DNA of 47,334 nucleotides from a virus. A program made the position numbers and the translations under genes. Position 1 is the first letter of the stretch. The number at the start of each line of letters is the position of its first letter. This document shows, piece by piece, positions 7,469-45,749 of the stretch. Where the stretch lies: the IMG/VR virus record IMGVR_UViG_3300045988_179273; one strand, written 5' to 3'. The notes beneath the pieces are model-generated. The model made no database searches and was not told where the DNA came from. It saw nothing but the letters and a program-made list of their open reading frames with translations.

Positions 7469-7495
7469 TTTAAATTCCTCCAAAATTAAGGGTTT

Positions 7496-17056: not shown

Positions 17057-17843
17057 GGCGATTTCCACTCAAGAGCTTGCGGCTTTGGCCAACCGGCTAC
17101 GCTTGACATTAATTCGTGACCGAATGGAAGAAATGTTGACGATGGCCGTGGACAAGAAGTTATCTCCAAGAGAAACTCTGGAATTCTTCTTTCGTCAAGA
17201 AATTCGGCGTCGAGAAGAAAATCGTATCCGACAAGCCATCATGGGGGCTCATTTTCCTGCAGTACGGACGTTGGAAGATTTTGATTTTGAGGCTCAACCA
17301 TCAATTGATGTGAAACAACTAAAAGAATTGGCACAACTCGAATGGGTTGGGCAGGCTAAAAATGTTCTTTTTCTCGGACCGCCGGGAGTCGGAAAGACTC
17401 ATTTGGCCATTGCATTGGGACGGGAGGCAATCAAACTGGGAATGAGTGTTGCCTTTTACTCTGCTGAAGAGCTTGGATCGTTGTTGGACAGGGCGCTAAA
17501 GGAAGGAACAATTAAACAAAAGCTGTATCAGCTTTCAAAACCAAAATTGCTAGTCCTTGACGAATTTGGCTATACGCCGTTTTCGTCAGTAAGTGCGCCA
17601 CTGCTGTTTCGGTTGATTAACAGCCGATACGAACAGAAAAGCATACTGATCACCAGCAACAAGCCCGTTTCCGAGTGGGCCGGCGTGTTGGGGGATGCAA
17701 CCCTGACAACTGCTATGCTGGACAGATTGTTGCATCACAGTGAAATCATCGTGATTCGCGGAGACAGCTACCGTCTCCTGGAGAAACGAAAGGAAGGACT
17801 TTTAACCTCAGCCAGGGCTGTTGGTACAGCTTTGACTGATTAA
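17043..17843 (+). CDS. istB: IS21-family helper ATPase IstB
   Basis: ATG 17043 after gaggag, overlapping the istA end. Walker A GPPGVGKTH, Walker B LLVLDEFG. Typical IstB/DnaC-like length. Confidence 0.9.
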   Translation: MAVVKAISTQELAALANRLRLTLIRDRMEEMLTMAVDKKLSPRETLEFFFRQEIRRREENRIRQAIMGAHFPAVRTLEDFDFEAQPSIDVKQLKELAQLEWVGQAKNVLFLGPPGVGKTHLAIALGREAIKLGMSVAFYSAEELGSLLDRALKEGTIKQKLYQLSKPKLLVLDEFGYTPFSSVSAPLLFRLINSRYEQKSILITSNKPVSEWAGVLGDATLTTAMLDRLLHHSEIIVIRGDSYRLLEKRKEGLLTSARAVGTALTD

Positions 17844-23552: not shown

Positions 23553-24500
23553 TCACGCGAGCAAGTCCTCGTCCGTGATTTCTTTCTTGACCTCGCCGGT
23601 GGCGGGGTCGGCCTGGGGCGAGATGGGTTCGGCTGCAGGAATCGGAGCCGTAGCCTCTGCCTGGACCTTGGCCTTAAGCTTGTCCTTGAGAGACTTCTTT
23701 TCCTCGACCTTCGGGGCTTCTTTTACCGACTCGGACTTGAAGAAGTCCGCTGCAACGGCCATGCCGTCACGTAAAGACGAATAAACCTTGCGCAGGCGAA
23801 CAACCTGCGCCGGGCGAATGGCTTCGATGCGGCACTGACAGAAGTCCTCGATCATTGTCTTTGTCACGCCATAAGGCTCGAAGGATTCAACCAACTTCTT
23901 GATGCCTTCTTTGCTCACATCAGCCGTGGCCTGCATGGTCACGTTGCACTGGTTGACCGCGGACTCAATGACGTCGCCAGGGATTACTGCGAGGATACAA
24001 GCGCGCAGGCGACGAGCCCCCTGGTTCGCCACAAGCTCATAGATGTCTCGTGGGTCTTCGAGTTTGTACGTGCCCTTGCGAGTGGAGCGAATGTGCGGTA
24101 CGGTGAACGTGACCTCGCGTCGCGTATTCGTTTCGACGTCCCAGGCGAACGCCTGAACCTCTGACTTTCCGCCGGCATTGGACAGCTCGCGAATGCCGAA
24201 CTGCATATTTCCCCACTGTTGGGCGACGGCCTCAGCCAGGCGGATGGACGGACCGGAGATTTCAGAACCGCCGCGGGCGTACTGATAGACCGCAGACTGT
24301 GCCAGGCTCGGGCGCGTGCAAGCGTTCAAGATGCGGTCCATGGCGGCCCGTTGATCGCGCGGATTCATCCGAGCAATGACAAGCGCGGCCTGGACCTCGG
24401 CAACGGCACGGTTGGACTCGGCCGTAGCGGTCGAGGGAAGGTTCGAACCCTGGGCAGTGACGACGCCGAAGGAGTTGGCGGTAACGATTGTGTTTTCCAT
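23553..24500 (-). CDS. Single-strand annealing protein (recombinase partner of the exonuclease)
   Basis: ORF 23553..24656; start chosen at ATG 24500 after aggagtcctaaat. 315 aa. Lies 29 nt downstream of the YqaJ-type exonuclease, as in exo/annealase pairs. No NTPase motif. The family was not recognised by eye. Confidence 0.55.
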   Translation of the reverse strand: MENTIVTANSFGVVTAQGSNLPSTATAESNRAVAEVQAALVIARMNPRDQRAAMDRILNACTRPSLAQSAVYQYARGGSEISGPSIRLAEAVAQQWGNMQFGIRELSNAGGKSEVQAFAWDVETNTRREVTFTVPHIRSTRKGTYKLEDPRDIYELVANQGARRLRACILAVIPGDVIESAVNQCNVTMQATADVSKEGIKKLVESFEPYGVTKTMIEDFCQCRIEAIRPAQVVRLRKVYSSLRDGMAVAADFFKSESVKEAPKVEEKKSLKDKLKAKVQAEATAPIPAAEPISPQADPATGEVKKEITDEDLLA

Positions 24501-24529
24501 ATTTAGGACTCCTTTGTAATACGTGTTAG

Positions 24530-25426
24530 TTAAATCGCTTTGAGCGTGAACCGACGCACCGGGGCGCCGAGTTTCAGGAATTGTTTGTAGATGTCCGGCA
24601 TCTTGGCCTTCAGACTTGCCGAATCGAGTCGGGCAACGGCCTTGCAGCTTTTCCATGTGGCGACGATTTGGCCGCCGACACCTAGGGACTCATTTGTCCC
24701 CATGTAGCCCTGAATTGTGGCCAGGGCAGCGCCCTCAATCTCTTTGGCTTTGGCAAGCTCTTCACGTGCAGCGCGAAGCGTATCCAACGCCTTGGCAACC
24801 TCGTCCGTTGCTTCGATTGTTTCCGGACGGCTCACGGGGAAGGCCTTCGAAACTTCCGAAAGGCTACGTGGGGCAGGCGGTGTCTTCGTCTCAACGAGAT
24901 TCCAAAACTTCTTTTCTTCTTCGACCAAGAGATCAGACAGTTCGGGGTCGTTCTTGACTGTGTAGACGCGGAAGTCGGACGCGCCGATGAGGACAGCCAC
25001 GTCGCACAGTTCTTTGCCTGTCACGGTCATGTAGTGCTGAACCTGGGTGAGGTAATACTCAGGTATTTCATCCGTTCCCTCTTCGCCCCAATCTGCGCCG
25101 GTGCGAGCCGTCTTGATTTCGAGCACGCGGTCGGCACAGAGGCCGTCAACATTGGCAATCATGAAGGGGTGCTCCGGATGACGGAAGAGGTGTCCTGGGC
25201 ATTCGACCGCACGGCCTGTTTTTTCGGAGTAAGCCTGGCGGATAACGGGCTCCAGACGGCGGCCCCATTCCATGCTGGCGTTGTCTCCTTCATCGGAGAC
25301 TTCTCCAACCTTGCTGTTGTAGACGTCAAGAGGCGTGCGCCATTTTGAAAGACCGAGAATCGCTGCGACGTCAGAGCCGCCGATCCCGGACTGACGCTCT
25401 TTTAACCATTCGATACGGGATTGCAT
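24530..25426 (-). CDS. YqaJ/lambda-Exo-type recombination exonuclease
   Basis: N-terminus EWLKERQSGIGGSDVAAILGLSKWRTPLDVY plus a later LEIKT motif (PD-(D/E)XK core) typical of YqaJ viral recombinase exonucleases. Confidence 0.85.
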   Translation of the reverse strand: MQSRIEWLKERQSGIGGSDVAAILGLSKWRTPLDVYNSKVGEVSDEGDNASMEWGRRLEPVIRQAYSEKTGRAVECPGHLFRHPEHPFMIANVDGLCADRVLEIKTARTGADWGEEGTDEIPEYYLTQVQHYMTVTGKELCDVAVLIGASDFRVYTVKNDPELSDLLVEEEKKFWNLVETKTPPAPRSLSEVSKAFPVSRPETIEATDEVAKALDTLRAAREELAKAKEIEGAALATIQGYMGTNESLGVGGQIVATWKSCKAVARLDSASLKAKMPDIYKQFLKLGAPVRRFTLKAI

Positions 25427-27287: not shown

Positions 27288-27923
27288 CTAGCGAACGCGG
27301 ACAATCCAGCCTTCTACACGTGCGACAACTTTGCTTACTTCAGTAGCGGTGTTGCCGAAAGCCGGGTTTGTAGGTGTTATATACATGTGTCCGCGGACGA
27401 TTGACAGCTTGCCAAAAGCAAGATTATCGTTGCCTGTCAGTCCGTCTTTTATGATGCCTACGGCGGCTGCTTCAGACGTTGAGGGAATGCTAGGATTTTC
27501 TTCTACTGACAAAAGAACGATGCTGCCTCTGGGCACAATTGGGGCGAGTTCGTCGGTTGGCATAACGAGACGAAGGCAGTCGTTTTCGTCCGGATCGATT
27601 TCAAGATTCTTTTTTAATTTCAGATACTTATCAAGGATAAGGTTGTAGTTAAAAAGATCGTCGACACTAATGTCTTCGTGCTTTGACTTGGCAATTTCCG
27701 GCGTGAGATTTTCGCCTTCTTTGAGCATTGTCCCTCGACCGGTTCTCAGCCAAATAGCATCAATACCAAATGTCGCCGCAATTTTTTCTGTCATCTCGTA
27801 GCTCGGGTTGTTTCGCCCTGCTAGCCAAAACGCGACGCTTTGGCGTGAGAGACCAACTTTCTTTGCGAACTGGCTCGCGTTGATTCCTAGGAATCGCATT
27901 AACTCATTGAGTCTTTCTTTCAT
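27288..27923 (-). CDS. CI-like repressor (HTH plus a degenerate S24/LexA-like C-terminal domain)
   Basis: ATG 27923 after ggaggtatta. HTH INASQFAKKVGLSRQSVAFWLAGRNNPS. C-terminal LRLVMPTDELAPIVPRGSIVLLS...AFGKLSIVRG aligns with the S24 pattern G-D-S-M-x-P...G-D / K-R-L, but has Glu where the Ser nucleophile is expected. Confidence 0.8.
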   Translation of the reverse strand: MKERLNELMRFLGINASQFAKKVGLSRQSVAFWLAGRNNPSYEMTEKIAATFGIDAIWLRTGRGTMLKEGENLTPEIAKSKHEDISVDDLFNYNLILDKYLKLKKNLEIDPDENDCLRLVMPTDELAPIVPRGSIVLLSVEENPSIPSTSEAAAVGIIKDGLTGNDNLAFGKLSIVRGHMYITPTNPAFGNTATEVSKVVARVEGWIVRVR

Positions 27924-27979
27924 TAATACCTCCGATACGAATTGTAAACAATGATTGGAAATTTCTCCTTTACGTTTTG

Positions 27980-28008
27980 TTGACAAATTTAATGTGGCGT
28001 GATACATT
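27980..28008 (+). promoter_or_regulatory. Candidate early-right promoter (PR-like)
   Basis: TTGACA (27980-27985), 17-nt spacer, extended -10 TGaTACATT (28000-28008). The -35 lies inside the 12-bp palindrome tttgt-tg-acaaa (27976-27987). Confidence 0.5.
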
Positions 28009-28040: not shown

Positions 28041-28262
28041 ATGTCTACAACAAAAGTGGATTTCATTTGCGAGTCAGCAGGACTTACATACTCCGAACTC
28101 GCACGAAAGCTCAATGTGAGCCGTAGCGCGATTACTCAGTGGAAACGGCGTGGCTCGATCCCTCCGGCGCCTGCTCGAAGGATTTCCAAAATCACAGGAA
28201 TCCCGCCTTACCTGATTAACGAAATTTTCCCGAAGCCGTTTGAGCCGGAAGGAAAGGTTTGA
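28041..28262 (+). CDS. Cro/YdaS-like HTH regulator
   Basis: ORF from 27999; ATG 28041 preferred. LTYSELARKLNVSRSAITQWKRRGSIPPAPARRISKITG is a Cro/YdaS-type HTH. Divergent from the repressor gene. Confidence 0.75.
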   Translation: MSTTKVDFICESAGLTYSELARKLNVSRSAITQWKRRGSIPPAPARRISKITGIPPYLINEIFPKPFEPEGKV

Positions 28263-28263
28263 T

Positions 28264-29064
28264 ATGTACTTTTACAAGTTTCATATCGGCGATTTTGCAA
28301 TGTGGACAGCCGGCTTCGATTCCGAATCGGTTGGCATTTTTATCAAACTGCTAAACCGATACATGCTCACAGAAAACCCAATTAAAACCGACTGGGTTTT
28401 TTTGGGTTTCCAAAATTCCGAACAAGAAAAGGCAAAAGCAATCCTTTCTTCGTGCTGGGAAGAAACTCCCGACGGATGGGTTTTTACTCCGGTTTTGGAA
28501 ATTGTCAAGCATTATCAATCGTCTTCGGCAAAAAACCGTGAAAACGGGAAAAAGGGCGGTCGTCCGAGAAAAGCGAACAGTAACCCAGAAGAAACCCAAA
28601 CAAAACCGAGTGGGTTTTCTGAAGAAACCCAAACAAAACCCAACACGAAACCCAACTCAGTTAACTCAATAAACTCAGTTAACTCAGTAAATAAAGATAT
28701 AGATACGCATCCATCGCCTTCGGCTCGGACAGCGTCTGTCTCTTCGAAGCGTCTTCCTTCGATTCAAAAACCCGAAGGTGTTGAGGATGAGGATTGGCAA
28801 GCATACCTCCGGCTTCGAAAGCAGAAGCGTCTTCCGCTGACGCAACGAGCCTTGAACGCAATGCTCGACGAGGCCGAGAAAGTTTCCATGACTCCACAGC
28901 AGATGATCGTTTGTTGTCTCGAACACTCGTGGGCCTCTTTCCGCGCCGATTGGTACGAGAAGGAGCAGAGCGAGAAGCCATTCGACATCGACGAGTACAT
29001 CCGCAAAAACGCAGCGTCTTTTGACGACTACGTACCCCCAGAATCCGAAGAAGGAGAATCCTGA
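28264..29064 (+). CDS. Replication initiator-like protein (DUF1376/YdaU-type N-terminus)
   Basis: ATG 28264 after ggaaagg. MYFYKFHIGDFAMWTAGFDSESVGIFIKLLNRYM matches the DUF1376 pattern. Basic tract NGKKGGRPRK. The central part is encoded by DNA repeats. Confidence 0.65.
   Translation: MYFYKFHIGDFAMWTAGFDSESVGIFIKLLNRYMLTENPIKTDWVFLGFQNSEQEKAKAILSSCWEETPDGWVFTPVLEIVKHYQSSSAKNRENGKKGGRPRKANSNPEETQTKPSGFSEETQTKPNTKPNSVNSINSVNSVNKDIDTHPSPSARTASVSSKRLPSIQKPEGVEDEDWQAYLRLRKQKRLPLTQRALNAMLDEAEKVSMTPQQMIVCCLEHSWASFRADWYEKEQSEKPFDIDEYIRKNAASFDDYVPPESEEGES
28588..28689 (+). repeat. Direct repeats inside the initiator gene (candidate ori iterons)
   Basis: The 20-mer gaagaaacccaaacaaaacc occurs at 28588 and 28621. 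Four tandem 9-mers aactcaKWW span 28654-28689 (the 15-mer aactcagttaactca at 28654 and 28672). An A/T-rich aataaagatatagata follows. Confidence 0.85.
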
Positions 29065-30550: not shown

Positions 30551-30849
30551 GAGACACGGTGGATTGGCAGCAGACAGATTGGCGCGTTGAGCGCATGGCT
30601 CGGCAGTACGGACTCGATCATCAGCTCAGAAAATTGCAGGAGGAACTCGCTGAACTCTCAGAGGCAATCGCCGTGCATCTGAGATCGCCGACACCGGTTA
30701 GTCGCAAAGAAATCATCGGAGAGGCGGCGGACGTGCACTTTCTTTTACGACAAATCGGGTTTCTTCTCAACGTGGATAGTGCAGGTATCGACGAAATTGT
30801 TGACTACAAGTATCGTCGACAACTGATGAGGGAGGGGCTGTACGAATGA
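30547..30849 (+). CDS. MazG-like nucleotide pyrophosphohydrolase
   Basis: LQEELAELSEAIA ... EIIGEAADVHFLLRQIG: the EExxE / E-x-x-D helix pair typical of small phage MazG domains. Confidence 0.6.
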   Translation: MRDTVDWQQTDWRVERMARQYGLDHQLRKLQEELAELSEAIAVHLRSPTPVSRKEIIGEAADVHFLLRQIGFLLNVDSAGIDEIVDYKYRRQLMREGLYE

Positions 30850-31244
30850 CGCAAATCATCCCTATGGCGCTGGTCCTTTCTTGGCCTCCGGCGCAGCTCA
30901 CGCCAAACTCGCGCTGCCACTGGGCGCAGAAGGCTCGAGTCGCCAAGAGGGCCAGGGGTGAGGCATACGTCCTCGCTCGTGCCTACTTATCCGAAAACCA
31001 CATCATATTTAATCCGAAGGCTGTTGAAAAAATCTCAATCGAGTACACCTTCACGCCTCCGGACCGCCGCGCTCGGGATGATGACAACCTCATCGCTGCT
31101 ATGAAGCCGTTTCGTGACGGAATTGCCCAGGCATTGGGCGTGGACGACAACTGCTTTCGCACGCAAGAGGCTGCGTTCGCATCGGTTCCTAGGCGACCTG
31201 CCTTTGTGTGTGCCCATATTCGCATAGAGGTCCGCGATGATTGA
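30846..31244 (+). CDS. rusA: RusA-family Holliday-junction resolvase
   Basis: WPPAQLTPNSRCHWAQKARVAKR ... RARDDDNLIAAMKPFRDGIAQALGVDDN matches the RusA motif set. Confidence 0.8.
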   Translation: MTQIIPMALVLSWPPAQLTPNSRCHWAQKARVAKRARGEAYVLARAYLSENHIIFNPKAVEKISIEYTFTPPDRRARDDDNLIAAMKPFRDGIAQALGVDDNCFRTQEAAFASVPRRPAFVCAHIRIEVRDD

Positions 31245-31443: not shown

Positions 31444-31627
31444 GGATCATCCGCTTGCGCGCTACACGGACGCCGACGTAAAGGCCGTGCTCATGCTACG
31501 GGAGGCAGGTTTTTCTCTTCGTGCTATCGCGGCAAAAATGGATATGCCGGTCAGGACCGTTCGCGGGTACATCTCGCAAAGAACCAGAAACTGCTCGGTC
31601 GCGGATTTCCGAGTGAGGAAGAAATGA
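31376..31627 (+). CDS. HTH DNA-binding protein upstream of terminase
   Basis: GTG start (a later start is possible). GEDHPLARYTDADVKAVLMLREAGFSLRAIAAKMDMPVRTVRGYISQRTR is an HTH pattern. The stop overlaps the TerS ATG. Confidence 0.5.
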   Translation: MTSRIFFDRKVIAVSDSGHAIGEDHPLARYTDADVKAVLMLREAGFSLRAIAAKMDMPVRTVRGYISQRTRNCSVADFRVRKK

Positions 31628-32046
31628 CAGAAAAGAAACTCACAGTAAAGCAGAAAAAGTTTGTTAAGGCAATCGCATCGGGAAAGTCTGCAACAGAGGC
31701 CGCAATCAAGGCCGGATACTCAAAAAGGTCCGCAAAAGTTACGGCCTGTCGTGCGCTAACGAAAACTAACATCGTAAAGGCTGTCGAGAAAGAGGTTGAT
31801 TCTGCTGCAAAAAAAGCAGGCGTTTCTCCAGAGTGGGTTTACAAAAGCCTGAAGCATCTTCACGATTTCAACTCGCAGGTCGTGAGCAAAGACGATGGCG
31901 ATGAGATGATCAATGCGCCGGTTGCCCTGGACGCAACAAAGTCCATCGGCAAATTCCTTTGTATGGGCGAGAAAGTTGATGACGCGAAGGATGAAACGCT
32001 CAAGATTCTGGCAGAAACCTTGCGGGAAAAGCTGAGCCATGAGTAG
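31624..32046 (+). CDS. terS: Terminase small subunit
   Basis: LTVKQKKFVKAIASGKSATEAAIKAGYSKRSAKVTACRALTKTNI is the typical TerS N-terminal HTH. Directly upstream of and overlapping TerL. Confidence 0.75.
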   Translation: MTEKKLTVKQKKFVKAIASGKSATEAAIKAGYSKRSAKVTACRALTKTNIVKAVEKEVDSAAKKAGVSPEWVYKSLKHLHDFNSQVVSKDDGDEMINAPVALDATKSIGKFLCMGEKVDDAKDETLKILAETLREKLSHE

Positions 32047-34078
32047 AAAGGGCGTAGCAACCGCTGCCACTTTCAGGGCCGTCACAAAAGGGCGTGCTAA
32101 GGCAGGATTCAATCTGGACACGCCTGCCGGCATACAGGATGCGCTGACTACGCTTGCGGTAAGGTGCTCAAAAGACCCGCTGCGCTTCGTGCAGCTCGCT
32201 TTCCCGTGGGGCAAGGGCACGCTTGAAAAGTACACCGGACCTGACACGTGGCAGACCGAGATTCTCACGGCGATGCGCGACAGGCTTCAATCCGGACACG
32301 AACGCGAGGAGGTTTATCAAGACGCAACAGCTGCAGGTCATGGTTGCGGAAAAGCACTTGATATTAAACAAGAAGTTGATACTCCAGACGGCTTGCGTGT
32401 TTGGGGCGACCTGAAGGTTGGTGACAGACTTTGGGGGCCGGATGGTAAGCCTACGACCATTGTCGCCATTCCGTACCGTGGCGTGCGTCCGTGCTACCGC
32501 GTCACCTTCGACGACGGGGCGAGCACGATTGCCAGCCAGGAGCATCTTTGGACTGTCTATGACTATCAAGGACTCCCGTACACCTTTGAGACAAGACAAA
32601 TCGCCCAGCTAGGATGTAAGAAGCCTGTGCGTTTCGGAGCGGCTACTTTTTACTATCCGATGTGGAAACTTCCTGAAGCAATAAACCCATACACTAAAAA
32701 GAGCATTAATCGGAGCATCGATTCCGTGGAGCCTATCGGGGAACGTGACACGATGTGCGTCACGGTGGACAGGGAAGACGGGCTGTTTCTTGCCAATGAT
32801 TTCATCGTGACACACAATTCGGGCCTTGTAGCCTGGCTCGTCCTTTGGGCTTTGTGCACCTACCCGGATACGCGCGGTGTGGTGACTGCCAACACGGAAA
32901 CGCAGCTGCGCACTAAAACCTTTGCCGAAGTGGCCAAGTGGTACAACGTGTGCCTGTTCAAGGATTGGTTCACGTGCTCGGCCATGAGCATTTACTCAAA
33001 GCAGCCAGGGCATGATAAGACATGGCGTATTGACGCGATTCCGTGGTCCGAGACGAATCCGGAAGCTTTTGCGGGCTTACACAATGCAGGCGCCAGGACG
33101 CTCGTGATTTTTGATGAGGCATCTGCCATTTCGAACGTCATCTGGGAAGTCACTGAAGGCGCCCTGACCGACAAGGACACAGAGAAGTTTTGGCTTTGCT
33201 TCGGCAACCCAACACGCAATACCGGGCGATTCTTTGACTGCTTCAACCGTTTTCGGCATCGCTGGGTGCATCGGCACATTGATACGCGAAACGCCGTGAT
33301 GTCTGACAAGACTCAGATTCAGAAGTGGATTGACGATTACGGAGAGGACAGCGATTTTGTGAAGGTCCGCGTGCGTGGCGTATTTCCGTCCTCTTCGAAC
33401 ATGCAATTCATCAGCCGAGACGTTGTGGACACAGCAGCACAGCGCGAATCAGAACCTCAGTCAATTATTGACACGGTTTGCATTCTCGGCGTGGACGTGG
33501 CCAGGTTCGGTGACGATAGGTCCGTCATTTTCTGTCGGGTAGGAATGGATGCGCGTTCATGGAAACACAGAGAGTATCGAGGATTGGACGGCTGGCAACT
33601 CGGAGCGAAGGTCGCAGAGTTTTACAACGATCTCGTGAGCGCCGGAGCAAGGCGCGTTATTATTAACATCGATGCAGGAGGCGTTGGCTCAAGCCCGCTG
33701 GATTGGCTGCGCAAAAACGGCTACGAAGTCAACGGAATCAACTTTGGTGAGTCCCCGTCGCGCAAGGACCTATATGCCAACAAGCGTGCCGAAATGTGGG
33801 CTCGTGGTCGTGAGTGGCTCAAAGCGGGCGGACAGATTGAAAACTCGGACGACCTGATAACGGACCTGACAGGCGTTGAATTTGACTACACGCCCAAGAA
33901 CCTTCTGCTCCTCGAAAAGAAAGAAGACATGAAAAAGCGCGGTCTGTCGTCGCCTGACTTGGCCGATGCACTGATGCTCACCCTCGCAATTCCGATGAAT
34001 GAGTATCTCGCAGACATCCAGCCGGTCACACCGTATCGAAACAATCGCCGCGCCGAAACACGAGATCCGTATGCGTAG
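32039..34078 (+). CDS. terL: Terminase large subunit, interrupted in frame by a mini-intein
   Basis: Walker A split as AAGHGCGK | intein | SGLVAWLVLW. Downstream ATPase/nuclease features present (VIFDEAS Walker B, GVDVARFGDD nuclease Asp). 524 aa after removing the intein. Confidence 0.9.
   Translation: MSRKGVATAATFRAVTKGRAKAGFNLDTPAGIQDALTTLAVRCSKDPLRFVQLAFPWGKGTLEKYTGPDTWQTEILTAMRDRLQSGHEREEVYQDATAAGHGCGKALDIKQEVDTPDGLRVWGDLKVGDRLWGPDGKPTTIVAIPYRGVRPCYRVTFDDGASTIASQEHLWTVYDYQGLPYTFETRQIAQLGCKKPVRFGAATFYYPMWKLPEAINPYTKKSINRSIDSVEPIGERDTMCVTVDREDGLFLANDFIVTHNSGLVAWLVLWALCTYPDTRGVVTANTETQLRTKTFAEVAKWYNVCLFKDWFTCSAMSIYSKQPGHDKTWRIDAIPWSETNPEAFAGLHNAGARTLVIFDEASAISNVIWEVTEGALTDKDTEKFWLCFGNPTRNTGRFFDCFNRFRHRWVHRHIDTRNAVMSDKTQIQKWIDDYGEDSDFVKVRVRGVFPSSSNMQFISRDVVDTAAQRESEPQSIIDTVCILGVDVARFGDDRSVIFCRVGMDARSWKHREYRGLDGWQLGAKVAEFYNDLVSAGARRVIINIDAGGVGSSPLDWLRKNGYEVNGINFGESPSRKDLYANKRAEMWARGREWLKAGGQIENSDDLITDLTGVEFDYTPKNLLLLEKKEDMKKRGLSSPDLADALMLTLAIPMNEYLADIQPVTPYRNNRRAETRDPYA
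32354..32818 (+). other. Class 3-type mini-intein (155 aa) in the TerL P-loop
   Basis: aa 106-260. Block A ALDIKQEVDTPDG, block B SQEHLW, block F TMCVTVD..LFLAN, block G FIVTHN, then +1 Ser. No endonuclease domain. Confidence 0.75.
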
Positions 34079-34136
34079 GGTGTGCGCATATCAGCCGGTT
34101 CGCACTTGACAATTCGAATTGCGTTGGGGAGAGAGA

Positions 34137-34586
34137 ATGTTCGAGACACGTGAAATTTCGTACATAGTTGAGTCAGAGAGCCCAGGGTTTCAAGAAACTG
34201 TCGCCGAATATCAGGCTGAAACGCAGAATCCAGGCATTGGTAGCCCCGAGATTCAGTATGAGCGCTACATGGAATTGAATGCTACCGGCTCGCTCAAGTG
34301 CGTCGGCGCTTTCGAGGCAGAAGAGCTTGTCGGGCTTGCACACGTCACTTTTGCTCGTAGCCAGCACTACCCGTTTCCGATTGCATCTATCGAATCGTTT
34401 TACCTACGCAAGTCCTTCCGAAAAGGCATGAATGGCCTCAAATTTCTGCGAGCAGTTAAGAAAATGGTTAAGGCATCTGGCGCGCCCGGGCTTGTCTTTA
34501 TGGCGCCGCCCGGTAGTGACTACGACAAGCTGTGTGAAAGGCTGGGAATGCTACACACGCATAACGCATGGTGGTGCAAGTCATGA
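34137..34586 (+). CDS. GNAT-like acetyltransferase (tentative)
   Basis: ATG 34137 after gggagagag. ELVGLAHVTFARSQHYPFPIASIESFYLRKSFRKGMNGLKFLRAVKKMVKASGAPGL resembles the GNAT acetyl-CoA-binding core (R-x-x-G-x-G/A). Confidence 0.45.
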   Translation: MFETREISYIVESESPGFQETVAEYQAETQNPGIGSPEIQYERYMELNATGSLKCVGAFEAEELVGLAHVTFARSQHYPFPIASIESFYLRKSFRKGMNGLKFLRAVKKMVKASGAPGLVFMAPPGSDYDKLCERLGMLHTHNAWWCKS

Positions 34587-35047
34587 AGAAAGACCTTACC
34601 GCTCCGATGACGGCATCCGTTGCCCAAAACGAGAAACTTGAATCGTTCACAAGATTGCTTGAAGACGTAGCTAAAACGCATCCGGAAGCGGTCGTAGACA
34701 TTCCGACCGAGCACCACATTCACGCTGGATGTTACTCACGTACGATTTTTGTGAAGGCCGGAACGTGGGTTGCGGGTTTGCAGATTCAAGTGGCCACACA
34801 GTTAGTTTTCTGCGGAAAAGGACAATTCTCTGATGGTAAGAACGTTAAGGAATTGGACGGCTACGTTGTGATGGAAGGCGCGCCTAAGCGCCGCGCTGCT
34901 TTTCATGCAGAGAAAGACACGTACATGACGATGTTTTATGCATCAAAGAAACGAACGGTTGCCGGCGCGGAAAAGGAGTTTTGTGCCGAGCCGGAAAGGC
35001 TTTTTACTAATCGGAAGGAGAAACTTCTATGTCAGGAGTTGCATTAG
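34583..35047 (+). CDS. Hypothetical protein (possibly cupin-like)
   Basis: ATGA-coupled start at 34583. 154 aa. The HHIHAGCYSRTIFVKAGTWVAG beta-rich pattern is only weakly suggestive. Confidence 0.45.
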   Translation: MKKDLTAPMTASVAQNEKLESFTRLLEDVAKTHPEAVVDIPTEHHIHAGCYSRTIFVKAGTWVAGLQIQVATQLVFCGKGQFSDGKNVKELDGYVVMEGAPKRRAAFHAEKDTYMTMFYASKKRTVAGAEKEFCAEPERLFTNRKEKLLCQELH

Positions 35048-35337
35048 GAATTTCGGCGGCTGCTGCCGTTATCGGAGCAGGCGTTTCTGCATACCAGAAC
35101 GACCGTCGTATGCATCAGCAAAAGATTGCGAATCAGAAAGCAGAGGCTCGGGCTAAAGAAACAGCAGAGCGCTCGGCACAGGAAACCCGTCGCCAAAACG
35201 GGCGCGAGGCGGATATTTCGTCGTTGCTCGAACAGAACAGCAACCAGGGTCTTTCGGGAGGTTCTACTCTGCTTAACGGAGCCCAGGGTGTGGATAAGTC
35301 CAAGCTGAGTTTAGGCGGCGGTTCGACTTTGGGCTAA
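35029..35337 (+). CDS. Small virion-associated protein (TM plus Gly/Ser-rich tail)
   Basis: SD ggaaggag. N-terminal GVALGISAAAAVIGAGVSAY, then a charged helix and GGSTL repeats. Immediately upstream of the portal gene. Confidence 0.5.
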   Translation: MSGVALGISAAAAVIGAGVSAYQNDRRMHQQKIANQKAEARAKETAERSAQETRRQNGREADISSLLEQNSNQGLSGGSTLLNGAQGVDKSKLSLGGGSTLG

Positions 35338-35365: not shown

Positions 35366-37054
35366 ATGGAAGGGAAGGATTTACGAGACCACATCTTGCG
35401 CCGCTGGGGAGCGCTCAAGGTTGAGCGTGAGCCGTTTGTGGCGCAATGGTCGGAGATTTCACGACACATTACACCGGCGTCGGGGCGGTTCTTCCCACAG
35501 ACCCAGAAGAACAACGCACGCGATCGCTGGAACAAGATTTACGACAATGCGGCAACGTATGCGTCGAGCATCTTATCCTCGGGCCTACAATCGGGCATGA
35601 ACGACCCTGCGACGCAGTGGTTTGACCTGACGACAGGCTCGCCTGAACTCGATGAGTCGCACGGCGTGAAGGTTTATCTTGACCGAGTGCGCCGCATCCT
35701 TGAGATGGCTTTCGAGCGCACGAATACGTATCAGTCGTTGCATCACGGTTGGCGAGAGGTCGGAGTCTATGGCGTATGCGCCATGCTCGTGATTGAAGAT
35801 GCGGTCAATGGTTTCCACTGCTATCCGCTTGTGTGTGGCGAATACTGCCTCGGAACCGATGCGCAGAACCGCCCGAACACGCTGTACCGTCGATTTAGCA
35901 TGACGGCTGAGCAGATGCTCATGCAGTACGGGCGTGCAAAAGTTTCACGTGCAGTGGTTGAGGCATACGACAACGGACAGCGCGACAAGAACTACAAGTG
36001 CATTCACGCCATCGAGCCGCGTGAGATTCGTGACCGTACCAAGAAAGACAACCGAAACATGCCGTATCGGTCCGTTGTCCTTCAGATTGATACGGACGAG
36101 GGCAAGGATGGCATTCTTGAGGAATCAGGTTACAACGAATTCCCGGCTGTTGTCGGACGCTGGGGGGCGAACGCATCGGACGTGTACTCGGAAGAGTGCC
36201 CCGGCATTGTTGCCATTGGCGACACGAAACAGCTCCAGCACGAAAACCTGCAGAAGGGCAACGCGATTGACTACGCCGTGGACCCTCCTTTGATTCTCCC
36301 GACGTCAGCTCAGCATCAGGCGCTTGATTTCCTGCCTGGCGGACGGAACTTTATCGACATGCCGACGGCGAACAACGTTGTGCAGTCTGCGTGGAATGTG
36401 CGCCCTGACGTGCAAGCTTTAATGGCTGATATGCAGGAAATTAAGCAGCGAATCTTCCAAGCATTCTACGTTGACATGTTCCTGATGATCAGTCAGGCGA
36501 ACAAGCATCAGATGACAGCCGAGGAAGTCGCGCGTCGCAATGAAGAAAAGTTAATGCTTTTAGGGCCTGTTCTGTCCAGATTCAACAACGAAGTGCTGAA
36601 ATGCCTGATTGAGCGTGCGTTCAACATCCTCTCCCGCGCCGGTCAGATGCCTCCGCCTCCGCAAGAATTAGCAGGACAGACCCTCCAGGTTCGCTACATG
36701 TCGATGCTCTCTCGCGCCCAGCATTCGCTTCGTGCGAACAGTCTGGACCAATTCCTACAACGCATTGGACAGATCGCGCAATTTAAGCCCGAAGTTCTTT
36801 CTAAACTCGACCCGTTTGAGGCGGTTGACGAGTACGCGGACTACTACTCTGTCGCGCCTTCAATCATCGTGCCGACGGACCAAGCCAAGGCAGAGATTGA
36901 GAAACAGCAGCAGGCCCAGCAACAGCAGGCCATGGCACAACAGCAAGCGCAGGCTGCGGACAATCTATCCAAGCTCGGACGTGTGCCGGCTGACGATTCG
37001 AACATGGCGGGTGCATTAGTGAAGGGGATGGCTCAACAGGCAGGAGTGGCGTAA
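35366..37054 (+). CDS. Portal (head-tail connector) protein, podovirus-type
   Basis: 562 aa after the terminase block. N-terminal RWGALKVEREPFVAQWSEISRHITPASG, the overall size and a Q/A-rich C-terminal tail resemble T7/BPP-1-type connectors (recollection). Confidence 0.8.
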   Translation: MEGKDLRDHILRRWGALKVEREPFVAQWSEISRHITPASGRFFPQTQKNNARDRWNKIYDNAATYASSILSSGLQSGMNDPATQWFDLTTGSPELDESHGVKVYLDRVRRILEMAFERTNTYQSLHHGWREVGVYGVCAMLVIEDAVNGFHCYPLVCGEYCLGTDAQNRPNTLYRRFSMTAEQMLMQYGRAKVSRAVVEAYDNGQRDKNYKCIHAIEPREIRDRTKKDNRNMPYRSVVLQIDTDEGKDGILEESGYNEFPAVVGRWGANASDVYSEECPGIVAIGDTKQLQHENLQKGNAIDYAVDPPLILPTSAQHQALDFLPGGRNFIDMPTANNVVQSAWNVRPDVQALMADMQEIKQRIFQAFYVDMFLMISQANKHQMTAEEVARRNEEKLMLLGPVLSRFNNEVLKCLIERAFNILSRAGQMPPPPQELAGQTLQVRYMSMLSRAQHSLRANSLDQFLQRIGQIAQFKPEVLSKLDPFEAVDEYADYYSVAPSIIVPTDQAKAEIEKQQQAQQQQAMAQQQAQAADNLSKLGRVPADDSNMAGALVKGMAQQAGVA

Positions 37055-40058: not shown

Positions 40059-43000
40059 ATGTTTCTTGAGCAGGTTTTTAATCCGTTAGAAAACCGTCCG
40101 ACTCCCTCGAAAGAGGAGATTGATACCTCGTTTGACAATTTCTACGGTAAGGGCGAGCGTCCGTTGGCGTTGCCTGATGACATGTCAGGACAGTACAACA
40201 CACAGCTTTCTCCGGATGAAGAATCTGCCTATCAGGCGTGGGCAAAAGGACAGGGGCGAGAAAAGGACGTTTTTAATTACGACCTGCGCGGCGCATGGAA
40301 AGAACTCCAATCGGGAACGATGAGCGAAGACGAACGCGGGCATTTAGGTGATAAGTACAAAAAGCCGAATCACCCGACGTTTAGCACCGAATCCATTTAC
40401 AACGGCAAAGACGGCTATCAGGGCGGAGTTTGGAGCAGAAACGGAAACGTTGATGTCTATACGCCTCAGCACAAATTGACGCCGGAGCAGGCCAAACGCT
40501 TAAAGCTTTATTTCGCGCAGAATGAAGAAGGCGTGGCTCTTAACCTGAAAGACAAGGTTTACGACAATCCAACAATTCAATTGGCCCCGAAGTCCGTCGG
40601 TGCATTCGACGGGCTTGCGAAGGGAATTCTGTATCCGATTCCTAACGCCTTGGTCCGGATGGGTTCTGGTGCTCTCATGGTGGCGTCAAAAGCGATGCCG
40701 TGGGTGCGTGATGACTTCTTAAAACAGATGGAGCAGGCATCTCTCGATTTGGACAAGTGGAATCGTGCGAATTTTGGCGCGAATCCGGAAACTATGGGCA
40801 AGGCAACGCAGGTTATTCATGGCCTCGTAGGGATGCTTGCCGAATTGGGAGTGCTCACGACGGGAGTAGGCGGAGCGGCAGGCCTCGCGATTAAAGGAGT
40901 CGGCGCAGCAGAGAAACTTCGCAAGACGTCCATTGCCGTCGGCTCAGCCTTGTTCGGTACTGATATAGGAATTTCGGAGCGTAATCGTCTTGTGGCCGAA
41001 GGGGTGGATGAGGATACGGCATTTAAAGCAGGCGCTGTTTCTGGCCTTCTCAACACAATTGGCGCAGCAATTCCTCCGTTCTTAGGCAGCAGCCGTACTT
41101 GGTCAGCCTTGTACGGTGCCGGCAGTAACGTAGCCTTGAACTATGCCGAGCTCTCAACCATTTCCTACGTTCTGGATCATCAGGATTACACGGAGCTTGC
41201 CAAGCAGTATGAGCTGAACATGGTCGATATGCTTGTCTCAGCAGGCGTGGGCGCATTTATGGGAACCGTCTTTTGGCGTAATCCGGTTGATGTTAAGTAC
41301 GACCGAGCATACCAACGTGTTTACGAGCGCTACAAGTTAGACTTGGAAGCCGGTGGGAAATTCTCTCAAGAAAAGATTGATTCAGAAGCGAAAATCAATG
41401 CGGCCTCGGTGGTTTCGTATGCTCGAATGATCCATATCGCACCGGACCAAGTTGATGACCTGGCTGCGAAAATCGTCTGGACTGACGACAGAAAGGCGTT
41501 CTCGGTGCCAGAAGAATACGCCATGCCGATTACGCAGGGCAGTGAGTGGCATATGGGGCCGTCTCCGAAGCGAAATGCAGAAGAGCAGATACCTGTCTTG
41601 AAAATTACAGAAGCTCCGCTTGGAAGAAAAGATGCGATTGCTTATACGACGGCCATTCTAAAGGACGGCGTGAAAAACAAAGACAGCGGATTTGTTCTCA
41701 CTGCCTCCCGCAGCGATATGAAGAAGGCTGCAGGCGAAAGAGGAGGATTGAAAGAAAGAGTATTCACCTCGGTGGCTAAAAATATCGACAAAATAGCCGA
41801 AAACTCTGTCTTAGTTGAGAGTCACGTAGATGTTAAACATCGGAATCCTAATGTTCAAGGGGTACATATTTTTGCTATGCCTGTTGAATTTGATGGTTCC
41901 TTCTGGCGAGTTCAATTGTTGGTGAAGGATGTTATTGAGCCTGGGAATGAAAAAACAGCAGTTCACACGATTGACGGAATCGAAATCCATAAAATGGAAA
42001 ACCCGCCCGTTGGGATAACCCAATCGGAGGGCGGGGTTTCTTACGTCGCTGGGGTCGCGGCCGCGGACAACCGACAAGTCCACAATGTCACCGATAATGT
42101 TCCCAACGACCGTACTGTTAGTTTATCCCAATTACTTGGCGGTGACAAGCCCTACATTCGCCAAGACGGAAAAGGATTCTTTGATTCGGTGGACGACGCT
42201 TCCCGCGCGGAAGGGGGTGTGTACTATGAGCCGCGTGAATACAACCAAATCATTGGCGAATATGGGGTCAGCGTCATGGATCAAGCTGACGAGAATTGGT
42301 CGCGCACAAACAACAGAAATGTCGCGTTGCAGATGGAATATTCTGGAAAAACGCCAAAAGAAATTCGTTTGGCAACCGGATGGGAACGCGGAGCCGACGG
42401 CAAATGGCGTTATGAAATTCCAGACATCAAGATTCGAGAAGACGGCTTCCGAATGTTACGTGATCGCGAGAAGGCAATCCGTGACAAGAAAGATGATTGG
42501 GCGTATTCGGACGAGGGCATAAATGCCTCGATTGAGGAGGGTAAAAGCCACGAAGCGGCCATAGATAGCGCACACGAGAGCGACGTATTGACTACAACGC
42601 TCGATAAGCTTGTCGATGCTCCGGATCTCTTCAAGGCATATCCTCAATTGCGAAAGATGACAGTCGAGTTCGGCAAACTGCCAAAAGGAACCGGTGGTTA
42701 TCTTTCGCTCGGAACAATGACAATGCGTCTTGGCCTTGATGCCGGAGTCTTTGCCAATTCGACTCGCTCGACTCTTATTCACGAAATTCAGCACGCCGTT
42801 CAGGAAATTGAGGGGTTCGCGCGCGGAGCTGACCCTAAGCGCATGCCTGGCAAGGGCGACGCTCTTTTCATTGACATGCAGCGGTTGCGGGAATTGCGAG
42901 GAAGTTCTGATTGGCGAGAGTATCAGGAAGCCGCAGATGAGATGCTGCGCCAGAGTGAAGCAGAAACAATGGATGACGCAGCGTGGAAACGTGCGACTTC

Positions 43001-45749
43001 CCGATTCGATGCAGCTGAAAAACTGCCCGGTGTTCAAGAGGTGCGGGCCGAAGAAAAACGTCTGACGGACAAGTGGGGTGATTCGCCGGATGTTTTACAG
43101 GCAATTAATAACGCAGCGGACATCACAGATCCTGTTTTCGCCAGAATAACTGAAAGCAATCCGTATTATCGGTATCAGTCTTATGCGCGTGTTGCCGGCG
43201 AGGTTGAAGCTCGAAATGCTCAGACAAGAAAGGATATGACGCCCGAGGAGCGTGCAGAAATATTATTGCTGGACACTGAAGGCGTTCCTCGAAATGAACA
43301 GATTATCATCAGCCGTGAATACCTGCAGAAAGGGCAAGAGGGCATTCGTGGCGCATTCAATCCGTCTACAAATACGATTCGCCTGACTCCGAACGCGAAT
43401 CTATCAACGTTCTCGCACGAGCATGCGCACTGGTATCTGACGAACACATTGGCGCTCGGCGGTAAGAAGGGGGCGCCGCTTGAGTTGCAGTCTCAAATCA
43501 ATGCGATTCTTCATGCGTTCGGGATCAAGAGCATTAATGATTGGAATGCGCTCGGCTTTGAAGGCCAGCGTAAGTATCAAGAGCAGTTTGCCGCATGGAC
43601 TGAAATCTATCTGACGCAGGGAAAATCACCGGTCAAAGGCCTTGAAGGCGTTTTCGCTAAGATGGCCGAATGGCTCATCGGCATGTATAAGGCCGCGCTC
43701 GGAAAGGACGCAGGTCCTGATGCGGCTGTTAGAGAAGTGAGCGACCGCTATCAAGCGCAATTTGGCGAGAAACTTCCTGAACTCTCTCCGGAAGTGCGCA
43801 AGGTTCTTGACACGATGTACGGAGCTCAGCAAAAGCGCAGCGCTTTCAAGTCGAGCAAAGCTCAAGCAATGGCCGGTCGACTTGTTCAGGCCCAGCGCGT
43901 GAATCAAACTAAGGTCAGCGCTCCGATTAGCGATCCACACGGACCTACGGCAGGCAATGTCGGTCAGGCTGCGCAGGGAAAGGCAGTTTCTGACCTGAAC
44001 AACGGGCGCAAGGTGGATGTTTCCGAACAGGTTGGCGATACGGAAGCGAATGTGCCGGTTGTGGAGGATACGCAAAGCACGTTCGCGCGCGGCGTTTCCA
44101 TCGGCGACGGAGACAAAAGCCGAGTGGTTGTTCTCCAGAACCGCAACCGTTCGGACCCGAACTCCGTGGCGCAGATGAATTCCATTGCGACCGACCCGCA
44201 ATATGGGCGCTTGAGCACGTCACGCACAACGCAATCGGGTGCTCCCATTGTGTCTTTTGGCCATCTTCCGGATAAAGCCTATCAGGGCAAGTCCGAGACC
44301 ATTACGGAATCGAACGGCAACAAGGTGCCTGTCACCTACTATGTTGTTGAGGCTGATGATGTGATGCGCTCCAACAACTACGACGGTACGCCAAATAAGG
44401 AATGGAATAACGACAATCCTGATCAGATGCGAGCCATTGCCGGTAACGGGCGTATGGCAGGGCTGTCTGAGGCATACAACCGTGGCACGGCGGAACAGTA
44501 CAGACAGGACTTGATGGCTGATTCCGAAAATCACGGTGTTTCACCTGAAACAATCAAGGGCATGAAAAAGCCTGTGTTGGTACGCTACATGCCGCCTGAC
44601 CGAGTTACGACAGGCTTTGTTGAGCGCTCCAATACGTCTGACGTGCTGGTCCGGTCCTCTCTTGAAACGGCTGTGCAAGATTCTCCCAAAGTCCGCAAGA
44701 ATATCGGCAAGTATGAATTTGATGAGGATGGCGATCCGACGAAAGAGACGCTCGGGCAATTTCTCACGGACGTCGGCGAAGTCTCTGAGATGGGGAACCT
44801 TATTGATTCGAACGGGAATCCGACAACGGCTGCGAGGGCCCGAATTAAGGCTGCTGTGTTCTATGAAGCATACCGAGACAAACGCCTGACGGAGCTTGTT
44901 GCGGATTCTGAAGATAAACATGGGATTAAGCGAATTTTGAGCGCCATGAGCGCCTTCGCTCCCCATGTGATTCAGATTCGTGAAACAAGCGGTGGCGCGA
45001 TTGATTTGGCGCCGATTATCACTGACGCAACGCATCGCATCTTACAGGCCCGAATCAACGGAGAGGGCGTGGACTTTACTGCCCAGGGCGATATGTTCTC
45101 TTCAAATCCGGCTACGGAAATGATGACGAACTTCCTGAGCCAAAACCGCAATTCGGCAGCGGCAATGCTCCGTGTGTTGCGTCCGTTTGCCGAGCAGGTT
45201 GAGAATGCTCTTCAGGCTGCGGACAGTCCTATGTTTGCAGATTTGGCAGTCAAAACCGACCTTGCGGACGCTATGGCCCTTTTCCGAAAGGCAGAGAATC
45301 AAGAGATTCGTAATCGCTCAGGTGACTTGCTCGGGGATGCGGACGGAAAGCTTTTGCCGGAAATAGATGTTGAGGCGATGCGCTCATCGCTGGCCAACAC
45401 ATTAAAGGACGGCAAGAATCTAGTTGATGCAATCTCCGAAGGAGTGGCTGAGACAAACCGCATGGCTACACCCGAAGCGAAAGCTGAGGCTCAGCAGCAA
45501 CATCTTATTGAGCAGCAGAATGCCCGAGAGGTTTTGTCTGAGAATTCTGAGGCTGTTCGGGCTCGTAATTTTGCGCTCGAAGATCCTAATCGCGAGTTGG
45601 TAATGACGGACGAGGCTGGCAACGATATTGTTATTAGTGCGCGAGAAGCCATGGCTCAGGCTGACGAAATCGAAAAGGGACTAAACGACGACACGGCCGG
45701 TTTGGGCATGGGCGTGGCTTGCATCATTCGTAATCAAGGAATCAGATAA
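40059..45749 (+). CDS. Giant polyvalent ejection protein (1,896 aa) with TM region, two HExxH motifs and a ParB-like domain
   Basis: aa 250-405 is Gly/Ala-rich and hydrophobic. HEIQH at aa 908-912 (nt 42780-42794). HEHAH at aa 1120-1124 (nt 43416-43430). ParB/DdrB-like VVVLQNRNRSDPNSVAQMNSIA..SGAPIV..AIAGNGRMAGLSEAY at aa ~1355-1475. Confidence 0.7.
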   Translation: MFLEQVFNPLENRPTPSKEEIDTSFDNFYGKGERPLALPDDMSGQYNTQLSPDEESAYQAWAKGQGREKDVFNYDLRGAWKELQSGTMSEDERGHLGDKYKKPNHPTFSTESIYNGKDGYQGGVWSRNGNVDVYTPQHKLTPEQAKRLKLYFAQNEEGVALNLKDKVYDNPTIQLAPKSVGAFDGLAKGILYPIPNALVRMGSGALMVASKAMPWVRDDFLKQMEQASLDLDKWNRANFGANPETMGKATQVIHGLVGMLAELGVLTTGVGGAAGLAIKGVGAAEKLRKTSIAVGSALFGTDIGISERNRLVAEGVDEDTAFKAGAVSGLLNTIGAAIPPFLGSSRTWSALYGAGSNVALNYAELSTISYVLDHQDYTELAKQYELNMVDMLVSAGVGAFMGTVFWRNPVDVKYDRAYQRVYERYKLDLEAGGKFSQEKIDSEAKINAASVVSYARMIHIAPDQVDDLAAKIVWTDDRKAFSVPEEYAMPITQGSEWHMGPSPKRNAEEQIPVLKITEAPLGRKDAIAYTTAILKDGVKNKDSGFVLTASRSDMKKAAGERGGLKERVFTSVAKNIDKIAENSVLVESHVDVKHRNPNVQGVHIFAMPVEFDGSFWRVQLLVKDVIEPGNEKTAVHTIDGIEIHKMENPPVGITQSEGGVSYVAGVAAADNRQVHNVTDNVPNDRTVSLSQLLGGDKPYIRQDGKGFFDSVDDASRAEGGVYYEPREYNQIIGEYGVSVMDQADENWSRTNNRNVALQMEYSGKTPKEIRLATGWERGADGKWRYEIPDIKIREDGFRMLRDREKAIRDKKDDWAYSDEGINASIEEGKSHEAAIDSAHESDVLTTTLDKLVDAPDLFKAYPQLRKMTVEFGKLPKGTGGYLSLGTMTMRLGLDAGVFANSTRSTLIHEIQHAVQEIEGFARGADPKRMPGKGDALFIDMQRLRELRGSSDWREYQEAADEMLRQSEAETMDDAAWKRATSRFDAAEKLPGVQEVRAEEKRLTDKWGDSPDVLQAINNAADITDPVFARITESNPYYRYQSYARVAGEVEARNAQTRKDMTPEERAEILLLDTEGVPRNEQIIISREYLQKGQEGIRGAFNPSTNTIRLTPNANLSTFSHEHAHWYLTNTLALGGKKGAPLELQSQINAILHAFGIKSINDWNALGFEGQRKYQEQFAAWTEIYLTQGKSPVKGLEGVFAKMAEWLIGMYKAALGKDAGPDAAVREVSDRYQAQFGEKLPELSPEVRKVLDTMYGAQQKRSAFKSSKAQAMAGRLVQAQRVNQTKVSAPISDPHGPTAGNVGQAAQGKAVSDLNNGRKVDVSEQVGDTEANVPVVEDTQSTFARGVSIGDGDKSRVVVLQNRNRSDPNSVAQMNSIATDPQYGRLSTSRTTQSGAPIVSFGHLPDKAYQGKSETITESNGNKVPVTYYVVEADDVMRSNNYDGTPNKEWNNDNPDQMRAIAGNGRMAGLSEAYNRGTAEQYRQDLMADSENHGVSPETIKGMKKPVLVRYMPPDRVTTGFVERSNTSDVLVRSSLETAVQDSPKVRKNIGKYEFDEDGDPTKETLGQFLTDVGEVSEMGNLIDSNGNPTTAARARIKAAVFYEAYRDKRLTELVADSEDKHGIKRILSAMSAFAPHVIQIRETSGGAIDLAPIITDATHRILQARINGEGVDFTAQGDMFSSNPATEMMTNFLSQNRNSAAAMLRVLRPFAEQVENALQAADSPMFADLAVKTDLADAMALFRKAENQEIRNRSGDLLGDADGKLLPEIDVEAMRSSLANTLKDGKNLVDAISEGVAETNRMATPEAKAEAQQQHLIEQQNAREVLSENSEAVRARNFALEDPNRELVMTDEAGNDIVISAREAMAQADEIEKGLNDDTAGLGMGVACIIRNQGIR

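Follow-up and report, generated by a model that had tools for sequence, protein, structure and literature searches.

A predicted class 3-type mini-intein in the Walker A loop of a phage large terminase

How can a phage package its DNA when the ATP-binding loop of its large terminase is split by 155 additional residues? The viral record IMGVR_UViG_3300045988_179273 of IMG/VR raises this question; the whole stretch of DNA analysed, 47,334 nucleotides long, is called the window here. Its large terminase (TerL) gene is an uninterrupted open reading frame on the plus strand (32039..34078) that encodes a precursor of 679 residues and 76.7 kDa, intein included. We assign positions 32354-32818, with a probability of about 0.88, to a class 3-type mini-intein that interrupts the TerL Walker A motif in frame, between Lys105 and Ser106, and would remove itself from the precursor by splicing.

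The translation of 32354-32818 runs from ALDIKQEVDTPDG to DFIVTHN, with the Walker A sequence AAGHGCGK (residues 98-105) directly upstream and SGLVAWLVLW downstream, exactly at the positions given in an earlier note on this DNA. The mini-intein (32354..32818, plus strand) comprises residues 106-260 of the precursor, 155 residues of 17.6 kDa. Removal of these residues leaves a protein of 524 residues (59.1 kDa) that reads A-GHGC-GKS. The earlier note had proposed this restored loop, and it exists in nature: the intein-less allele P0004, with 524 residues and 99% identity, lacks exactly residues 106-260 and reads GHGCGK/SGLVAWLVLW (a slash marks the junction). Comparison of the window with contig L001, which carries the P0004 allele, showed a clean 465-bp indel between flanks of 92-94% DNA identity. 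The search for TerL homologues returned 6,981 matches at an expectation value (E) of ≤0.001, the best 120 of which were examined. The GK/S junction is contiguous in all the intein-less homologues among them (73/73), many of which have about 500 residues, in agreement with the expected alignment across this site. These comparisons show the insertion site and the precise excision boundaries. The insert is also present in cluster P0001, which is 99% identical to the window TerL precursor over its full length of 679 residues. The insert does not stand out in its G+C content (52.0%, with 54.9% in the exteins and 51.3% in the window). Two minus-strand open reading frames inside the intein (32168-32599 and 32609-32815), considered as free-standing endonuclease genes, have no Pfam match and are regarded as spurious. 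An apparent double intein in the Reyranella contig L015, suggested by a long tblastn match, is really an intein-less TerL with an over-extended match.

The nearest relatives of the insert with known structures are class 3 inteins. A phmmer search against PDB chains gave class 3 DnaB inteins as the top matches (E 1e-13 to 2e-12), including the Mycobacterium smegmatis DnaB-1 intein (6bs8, E 1.3e-13). Further matches were gp41-1 (6riz, 6qaz) and the Mycobacterium chimaera DnaB-1 intein (6rix, 6riy). The AlphaFold2 model of the intein, built with 34 aligned sequences, has a mean predicted local distance difference test score (pLDDT) of 93.6. Foldseek comparison of this model placed 6bs8 ('The class 3 DnaB intein from Mycobacterium smegmatis'), 6riy and 6rix at the top, with E of about 1e-9 and template modelling (TM) scores of 0.81-0.87 on the target, followed by gp41-1, Prp8, Npu DnaE and a hedgehog Hint domain. 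With very few exceptions, inteins and Hint domains make up the Foldseek matches at E≤0.001. Intein blocks A, B, F and G are all present. The sequence matches and the predicted fold thus identify the insert as a Hint/intein domain, and the M. smegmatis and M. chimaera DnaB mini-inteins came out as the closest of the known class 3 inteins.

Class 3 inteins have a non-nucleophilic residue 1, a non-contiguous triplet of Trp (block B position 12, B12), Cys (F4) and Thr (G5), and usually Ser or Thr at the +1 position (PMC2807308, PMC5050341). The window intein carries every one of these features: Ala1, Trp66, Cys135, Thr153 and Ser+1. Block A (ALDIKQEVDTPDG; 32354..32392, plus strand) begins with Ala, which is not a nucleophile. 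Block B (STIASQEHLWTV; 32522..32557, plus strand) contains His64 at B10 (32543-32545) and Trp66 at B12 (32549-32551). Block F (RDTMCVTVDREDGLFLA; 32744..32794, plus strand) contains Cys135 at F4 (32756-32758), the predicted initiating nucleophile, which falls opposite the region of the catalytic Cys118 in the alignment to 6bs8. Block G (NDFIVTHN; 32795..32818, plus strand) provides Thr153 at G5, His154 and Asn155. In the numbering of the precursor these residues are His169 and Trp171 (SQEHLW), Cys240 (TMCVTVD) and Thr258-His259-Asn260, followed by Ser261; the initial Ala, Trp171, Cys240, Thr258 and Asn260 had been named correctly in the earlier note, and its W-C-T (Trp-Cys-Thr) class 3 signature stands by the published definition. 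An additional cysteine, Cys47 (32492..32494, plus strand), aligns with Cys48 of the M. smegmatis intein (DnaBi1) in the phmmer alignment to 6bs8.

The same pattern extends to the relatives at this site. There are 48 inteins at the GK/S junction, the window copy and 47 among the top 120 TerL homologues. Residue 1 is Ala in 28, Gly in 8, Leu in 6, Met in 2, and Glu, Ile, Val or Gln in one each; Cys, Ser or Thr occurs in none of the 48, which together with Ala1 of the window copy rules out a class 1 intein. No variation in the H-x-W motif, the block F Cys or T-H-N occurs in the 48 inteins or in the alignment of 34 sequences, and the +1 residue is Ser in 47 of 48 and Thr in the other. Free variation of residue 1 next to an invariant F4 Cys is the pattern expected where the latter serves as the initiating nucleophile. 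Position 47 is Cys in 17 of the 48, including all four copies of the mini-intein.

These residues suggest how splicing would proceed. After the precursor folds, the Hint domain would draw both junctions together. Cys135 (Cys240 of the precursor) would then attack the Lys105-Ala106 bond, a step of which Ala1 is incapable, to form a thioester branched intermediate. The N-extein would be transferred from there onto the side chain of Ser+1, cyclisation of Asn155 would free the 17.6-kDa intein, and an O-to-N acyl shift would yield the 59-kDa TerL, its GHGCGKS P-loop intact. Splicing through the class 3 pathway was shown experimentally for the closest solved relative, the 139-residue M. smegmatis DnaB-1 intein (PMC5222942). 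Before splicing, the ATP-binding loop is split by 155 residues; therefore, the packaging ATPase is expected to be inactive in the precursor. We infer splicing, the block F branched intermediate and the inactivity of the unspliced precursor from sequence.

As the earlier note had it, the host gene is a large terminase. It comprises a P-loop ATPase and an RNase H-like nuclease and adjoins the genes of the small terminase subunit (TerS) and the portal. The N-extein (32039..32353, plus strand; residues 1-105) ends with the Walker A AAGHGCGK (32330-32353). The C-extein (32819..34078, plus strand) starts with Ser+1 (32819-32821), which completes GKS, and contains the remainder of the ATPase domain and the nuclease domain. 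Without the insert, TerL gives a match of E 3e-41 to PHROG 2, 'terminase large subunit'. Pfam Terminase_6N stays below its threshold on TerL (16.4 bits vs. 22), and sequence and profile searches of the PDB with the extein yielded no more than a weak match of the nuclease domain to Sf6 gp2; because of these weak results, the structure of the spliced form was predicted, with the natural intein-less allele P0004 (99% identical to the window exteins) as its representative (mean pLDDT 83.5). The Foldseek matches of this model are the large terminases Sf6 gp2 (E 9e-20), D6E, HK97 and T4 gp17, and the nuclease domain of the C-extein resembles those of Sf6 gp2 and E217 TerL. In this model, the GHGCGK loop connects a strand (residues 93-99) to a helix that starts at residue 105; the whole strand-loop-helix unit spans residues 93-119. 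This is the Walker A arrangement, and the insert therefore falls between the invariant Lys105 and Ser106. The junction between the P-loop Lys and the hydroxyl residue is a 'classic' site of intein insertion, site TerL1-a of Kelley et al. (PMC5050341). The TerS gene (31624..32046, plus strand) matches PHROG 51 'terminase small subunit' at E 7e-19 and overlaps the start of TerL; its homologue in related contigs matches Pfam Terminase_2. The T7-type portal gene (35366-37054) lies 3' of TerL.

Comparison with the other inteins at the GK/S site indicates where the small size of the window copy comes from. As the earlier note had stated, the insert has no homing-endonuclease domain (no LAGLIDADG or Hom_end match); its close relatives have one. 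Of the 48 same-site inteins, 44 have 303-357 residues and a LAGLIDADG homing endonuclease, confirmed with Pfam for P0003 (LAGLIDADG_3, Hom_end). The window copy keeps a linker subdomain (residues 69-114; 32558..32695, plus strand) that, in the alignment with the full-length relatives, ends in INPYT, a remnant of the first LAGLIDADG motif. This linker is the lower-confidence part of the intein model (pLDDT 74-87). The segment after block B, 'YTFETRQIAQLG...FYYPMWKLPEAINPY', aligns with 'W.TLET.EIL..GVKR.NG..RQWEIP......PY' of the relatives, and the next segment, '..SINRSIDSVEP', aligns with 'RYL.RWIDSIEP' of the full-length forms. About 190-200 residues between '..PY' and 'RY..RWIDSIEP' are missing in the window copy, and the endonuclease core begins at the first LAGLIDADG motif, after 'PY'. 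The deletion scar lies at 32681-32707 (plus strand). These alignments show that the window mini-intein is, by its sequence, a clean endonuclease deletion from a full-length class 3 family. The mini-intein occurs in four clusters: the window sequence, P0001 (22 members), P0002 and P0015 (10 members). The deletion boundaries are the same in all four mini-intein sequences, which points to a single deletion event.

The mini form has a narrow distribution in the searches. An exhaustive search of 1.84 billion cluster representatives found 12,243 relatives of the intein at E≤0.001, and an end-to-end match of high identity came from one 50%-identity cluster only, P0002. The other strong matches are inteins of UvrD/RecD-like, SNF2 and DnaB helicases and of other terminases; comparable host proteins were listed for class 3 inteins by Tori et al. 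(PMC2807308). The mini form was not found in the IMG/VR contigs, where only six full-length relatives matched, over the N-terminal part alone, nor in 185,579 species-representative genomes. A word-indexed protein search with the intein alone gave no match although the database holds identical inteins, a limitation of the tool. The full-length form is present in Salmonella virus PAT1 (MT261384.1 23824-26274, corresponding to L003 1441-3891), whose TerL of 817 codons contains an intein at the same GK/S junction, reading GK/ALRPDD...SSGHLW...GVCFEV...YIVTHN/S. The GenBank label of this gene is just 'terminase large subunit', and the intein is unannotated. Phage 66FD gave a near-identical tblastn match, which suggests that its TerL likewise holds a full-length intein.

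Both the intein and its host gene show signs of selection and of separate histories. The ratio of nonsynonymous to synonymous substitution rates (dN/dS) of the intein is 0.17 between the window and L004 and about 0.05 between the window and L006, the latter with a saturated synonymous rate (dS). The dN/dS of the exteins between the window and L001 is 0.03-0.05. These ratios, calculated from the aligned genes, show purifying selection on both the intein and the host gene. The inteins of the window and P0015 share 85% DNA identity and 84% protein identity with a dS of 0.64, whereas their exteins share 61-64% DNA identity and about 50% protein identity with a saturated dS. The common ancestor of the two inteins is thus far younger than that of their host genes, which argues for lateral transfer of a form that encodes no endonuclease itself; the mini-intein appears to have moved into a TerL of only 49% identity. 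The mini and full-length forms also occur in closely related genes: the exteins of P0002 (mini) and P0003 (full-length) are 93% identical, those of P0015 (mini) and P0090 (full-length) are 84% identical, and those of P0003 are 85% identical to the window exteins. A single TerL lineage therefore contains empty alleles (99% identical), full-length ones (exteins 85% identical) and mini ones together, as would be expected if a homing element were caught at several points of its life cycle.

The region from about 27 kb to 47 kb is a temperate-phage block. Besides the packaging genes, it contains a CI-like repressor (27288-28007, minus strand), a replication initiator (28240-29064), RusA (30846-31244) and a polyvalent protein of 1,896 residues (40059-45749, plus strand) with Pfam matches to ddrB-like ParB, LPD3 and LPD23 and a weak one to the DUF6782 metallopeptidase; with such domains, the protein may reside inside the virion or be ejected from it, and may carry anti-defence modules. 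A YqaJ-like viral recombinase/exonuclease gene (24530-25426, minus strand; Pfam E 1e-38) and an overlapping gene of PHROG 3657, a family of unknown function (23553-24656, minus strand), may form a phage recombination module. Between TerL and the portal gene, 942 bp (34131-35073) have no BLAST match to L001, which has a stretch of equal length there and is otherwise 90-93% identical; on this comparison the segment looks like a module swap. Two open reading frames within it have no Pfam match, and one of them has weak tail-fibre PHROG matches.

About 25-30 kb separate the TerS-TerL-portal block from two genes in the left part of the window, one for a tyrosine integrase (1433-2632, plus strand) and one for an epsilon15-type (GP7) major capsid protein (6425-7483, minus strand), the latter on the strand opposite to the packaging genes. 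Contig L004, a relative, has its GP7 capsid gene 3' of the portal gene and on the same strand. An IS21-family transposase gene (15779-17056, plus strand; NCBIfam E 5e-73) is located between the left and right phage-like parts, and an overlapping open reading frame 3' of it (17028-17843) is a candidate IstB helper. The window may represent a permuted genome, two prophages or one that has been rearranged. No match was obtained by megablast when the TerL region was compared with GenBank phages or the left 12 kb with E. coli genomes; therefore, the window is neither E. coli sequence nor a known phage. The nearest TerLs in the species-representative genomes (L007, L008, L010, L036, L041 and L086; up to 82-83% identity) belong to uncultured Sutterella and Duodenibacillus, and the top two by E-value have the intein-less length of about 1.5 kb. 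The host group of the window phage is thus probably the gut Sutterellaceae.

Some of the results weigh against the assignment of an active class 3 intein. When the precursor and the insert were scanned with Pfam and NCBIfam, all the Hint/intein matches remained below the curated thresholds, the Pfam model Hom_end_hint reaching 21.9 bits with a cut-off of 32.1 bits. For this reason, the Hint assignment rests on the PDB sequence matches and the predicted fold. The profile check suggested in the earlier note thus came out divided, with the Pfam Hint models under their gathering score and both the phmmer match to 6bs8 and the class 3 fold match in its favour; a check with Pfam only would have seemed negative. 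The W-C-T signature is a prediction, no proof, of the class 3 pathway. The lower dN/dS value of the intein comes from the comparison with saturated dS. The IS21 transposase and the oddly placed capsid gene imply that the phage may be defective and its TerL possibly unused.

Four other explanations of the insert were weighed. The first accepts an active class 3 intein and adds that its splicing is conditional on redox state or zinc, so that it acts as a post-translational switch of DNA packaging, the 'checkpoint' that the earlier note had in mind. Splicing of M. smegmatis DnaBi1 is reversibly blocked under oxidative stress by a disulfide between the catalytic block F Cys118 and Cys48 (PMC6195587), and a reversible inhibition of mycobacterial DnaB splicing by zinc is reported (PMC7360933). 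The alignment of Cys47 with Cys48 and its presence in all four mini-intein copies are consistent with a similar arrangement in TerL. However, a Cys at this position in only 17 of the 48 same-site inteins is no family-wide feature, and oxidative gating might apply only rarely in gut Sutterellaceae, the likely hosts. The mixture of empty, full-length and mini alleles is fully explained by a selfish element without any benefit to the host. We therefore regard conditional splicing as unlikely. A joint version, in which the mini-intein is still mobile, by homing in trans through the endonuclease of the full-length alleles or by recombination during co-infection, and in which Cys135 and Cys47 form a redox or metal switch of packaging, is likewise doubtful. 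Its two parts differ: the mobility part has some support from the sequence comparison with P0015, in which the intein is far less diverged than the exteins (85% vs. 61-64% DNA identity, dS of 0.64 vs. saturated), whereas the switch part is pure inference by analogy with DnaBi1.

The second explanation is that the insert is a decaying, splicing-dead remnant in a defective prophage and that TerL is a disrupted pseudogene. The loss of the homing endonuclease, the IS21 transposase in the window and the inverted capsid gene distant from the packaging block would fit such decay, and inactive class 3-like inteins are on record (PMC3196547). However, the 679 codons form an intact frame, all the catalytic positions are conserved, and the mini-intein recurs in four protein clusters. 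The intein dN/dS of 0.05-0.17 and the extein dN/dS of 0.03-0.05 against L001, the latter a sign of strong purifying selection, are also at odds with a pseudogene, and we consider this explanation quite improbable.

A third one keeps a real intein but lets it splice by the class 2 (KlbA-like) route, in which the +1 residue attacks the N-terminal junction directly, without a block F intermediate. Ala1 is shared with the archaeal KlbA inteins (PMC2807308). However, this route needs Cys+1, and KlbA lacks the W-C-T triplet; in the window, the +1 residue is Ser, F4 is Cys, and Trp, Cys and Thr are present and invariant, so a class 2 intein of the KlbA type was rejected on these sequence criteria. 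Bvi IcmO, a class 3 intein that does have Cys+1, is unable to splice in that way (PMC5222942), and the nearest relatives in sequence and fold are class 3 inteins, which leaves the class 2 route very improbable indeed. The last explanation, a permanent Hint-like or bacterial intein-like (BIL) domain retained in mature TerL, recalls the non-ligating Hint folds, BIL and hedgehog Hint among them, that appear as weaker Foldseek matches, but it has a next to negligible probability because the insert breaks a P-loop that is contiguous in 73/73 intein-less homologues, carries every intein block with His-Asn followed by Ser, and is matched best by bona fide splicing inteins. A class 3-type mini-intein in the TerL P-loop is thus the preferred reading.

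A class 3-type mini-intein at this position leaves the current understanding of inteins unchanged. Its practical consequence is for annotation: the 679-residue 'terminase' would be a 524-residue enzyme plus a mobile element that Pfam and NCBIfam do not flag at curated thresholds. The TerL lineage in which it resides offers a compact natural system for intein invasion, endonuclease loss and persistence. For engineering, the few class 3 scaffolds characterised would gain a compact member with Ser+1 and a Lys tolerated at -1.

That phage terminase large subunits contain class 3 inteins, mostly in their P-loops, has been known since 2010, when the MP-Be DnaB intein was established as the class 3 prototype (Tori et al. 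2010, PMC2807308). Among the proteins of mycobacteriophages, TerL is the richest in inteins (PMC5050341). A survey from 2025 found 287 class 3 inteins in actinobacteriophages, of 225-359 residues, none as small as 155 residues. As class 3 inteins in TerL P-loops and characterised class 3 mini-inteins are both known already, the kind of element found in the window is not new. It is mildly distinctive as a 155-residue class 3 mini-intein in the terminase of a phage probably of Proteobacteria, with a visible origin by deletion and with evidence of transfer in the absence of its own endonuclease.

Among the known systems, the DnaB-1 inteins of M. smegmatis and M. chimaera (6bs8, 6rix, 6riy) are mini-inteins with the same W-C-T triplet, and that of M. 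smegmatis also has Ser+1 and aligns in both its block F Cys and the partner Cys48. The identity to the window intein is only about 29%, however, and their host protein is a bacterial replicative helicase instead of a phage terminase. They are shorter (139-145 residues), whereas the window intein keeps a linker subdomain of about 46 residues. The full-length TerL inteins (P0003, P0007, P0090 and others, and those of PAT1 and 66FD of the genus Uetakevirus) share the site, the W-C-T triplet and Ser+1 with the window copy, and the splicing blocks are 72-83% identical among the closest ones; they differ in their endonuclease and in their length of 303-357 residues. Like the archaeal class 2 KlbA inteins, the window intein starts with Ala and has no N-terminal nucleophile, but KlbA relies on direct attack by Cys+1, whereas the window intein has the F4 Cys and Ser+1. 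The mycobacteriophage TerL inteins (Kelley et al. 2016, PMC5050341) are also phage inteins, concentrated in the ATPase domain of TerL, and site TerL1-a is the same P-loop position. However, their hosts are actinobacteriophages, and those named as class 3 are situated at sites c, d and e, outside the P-loop.

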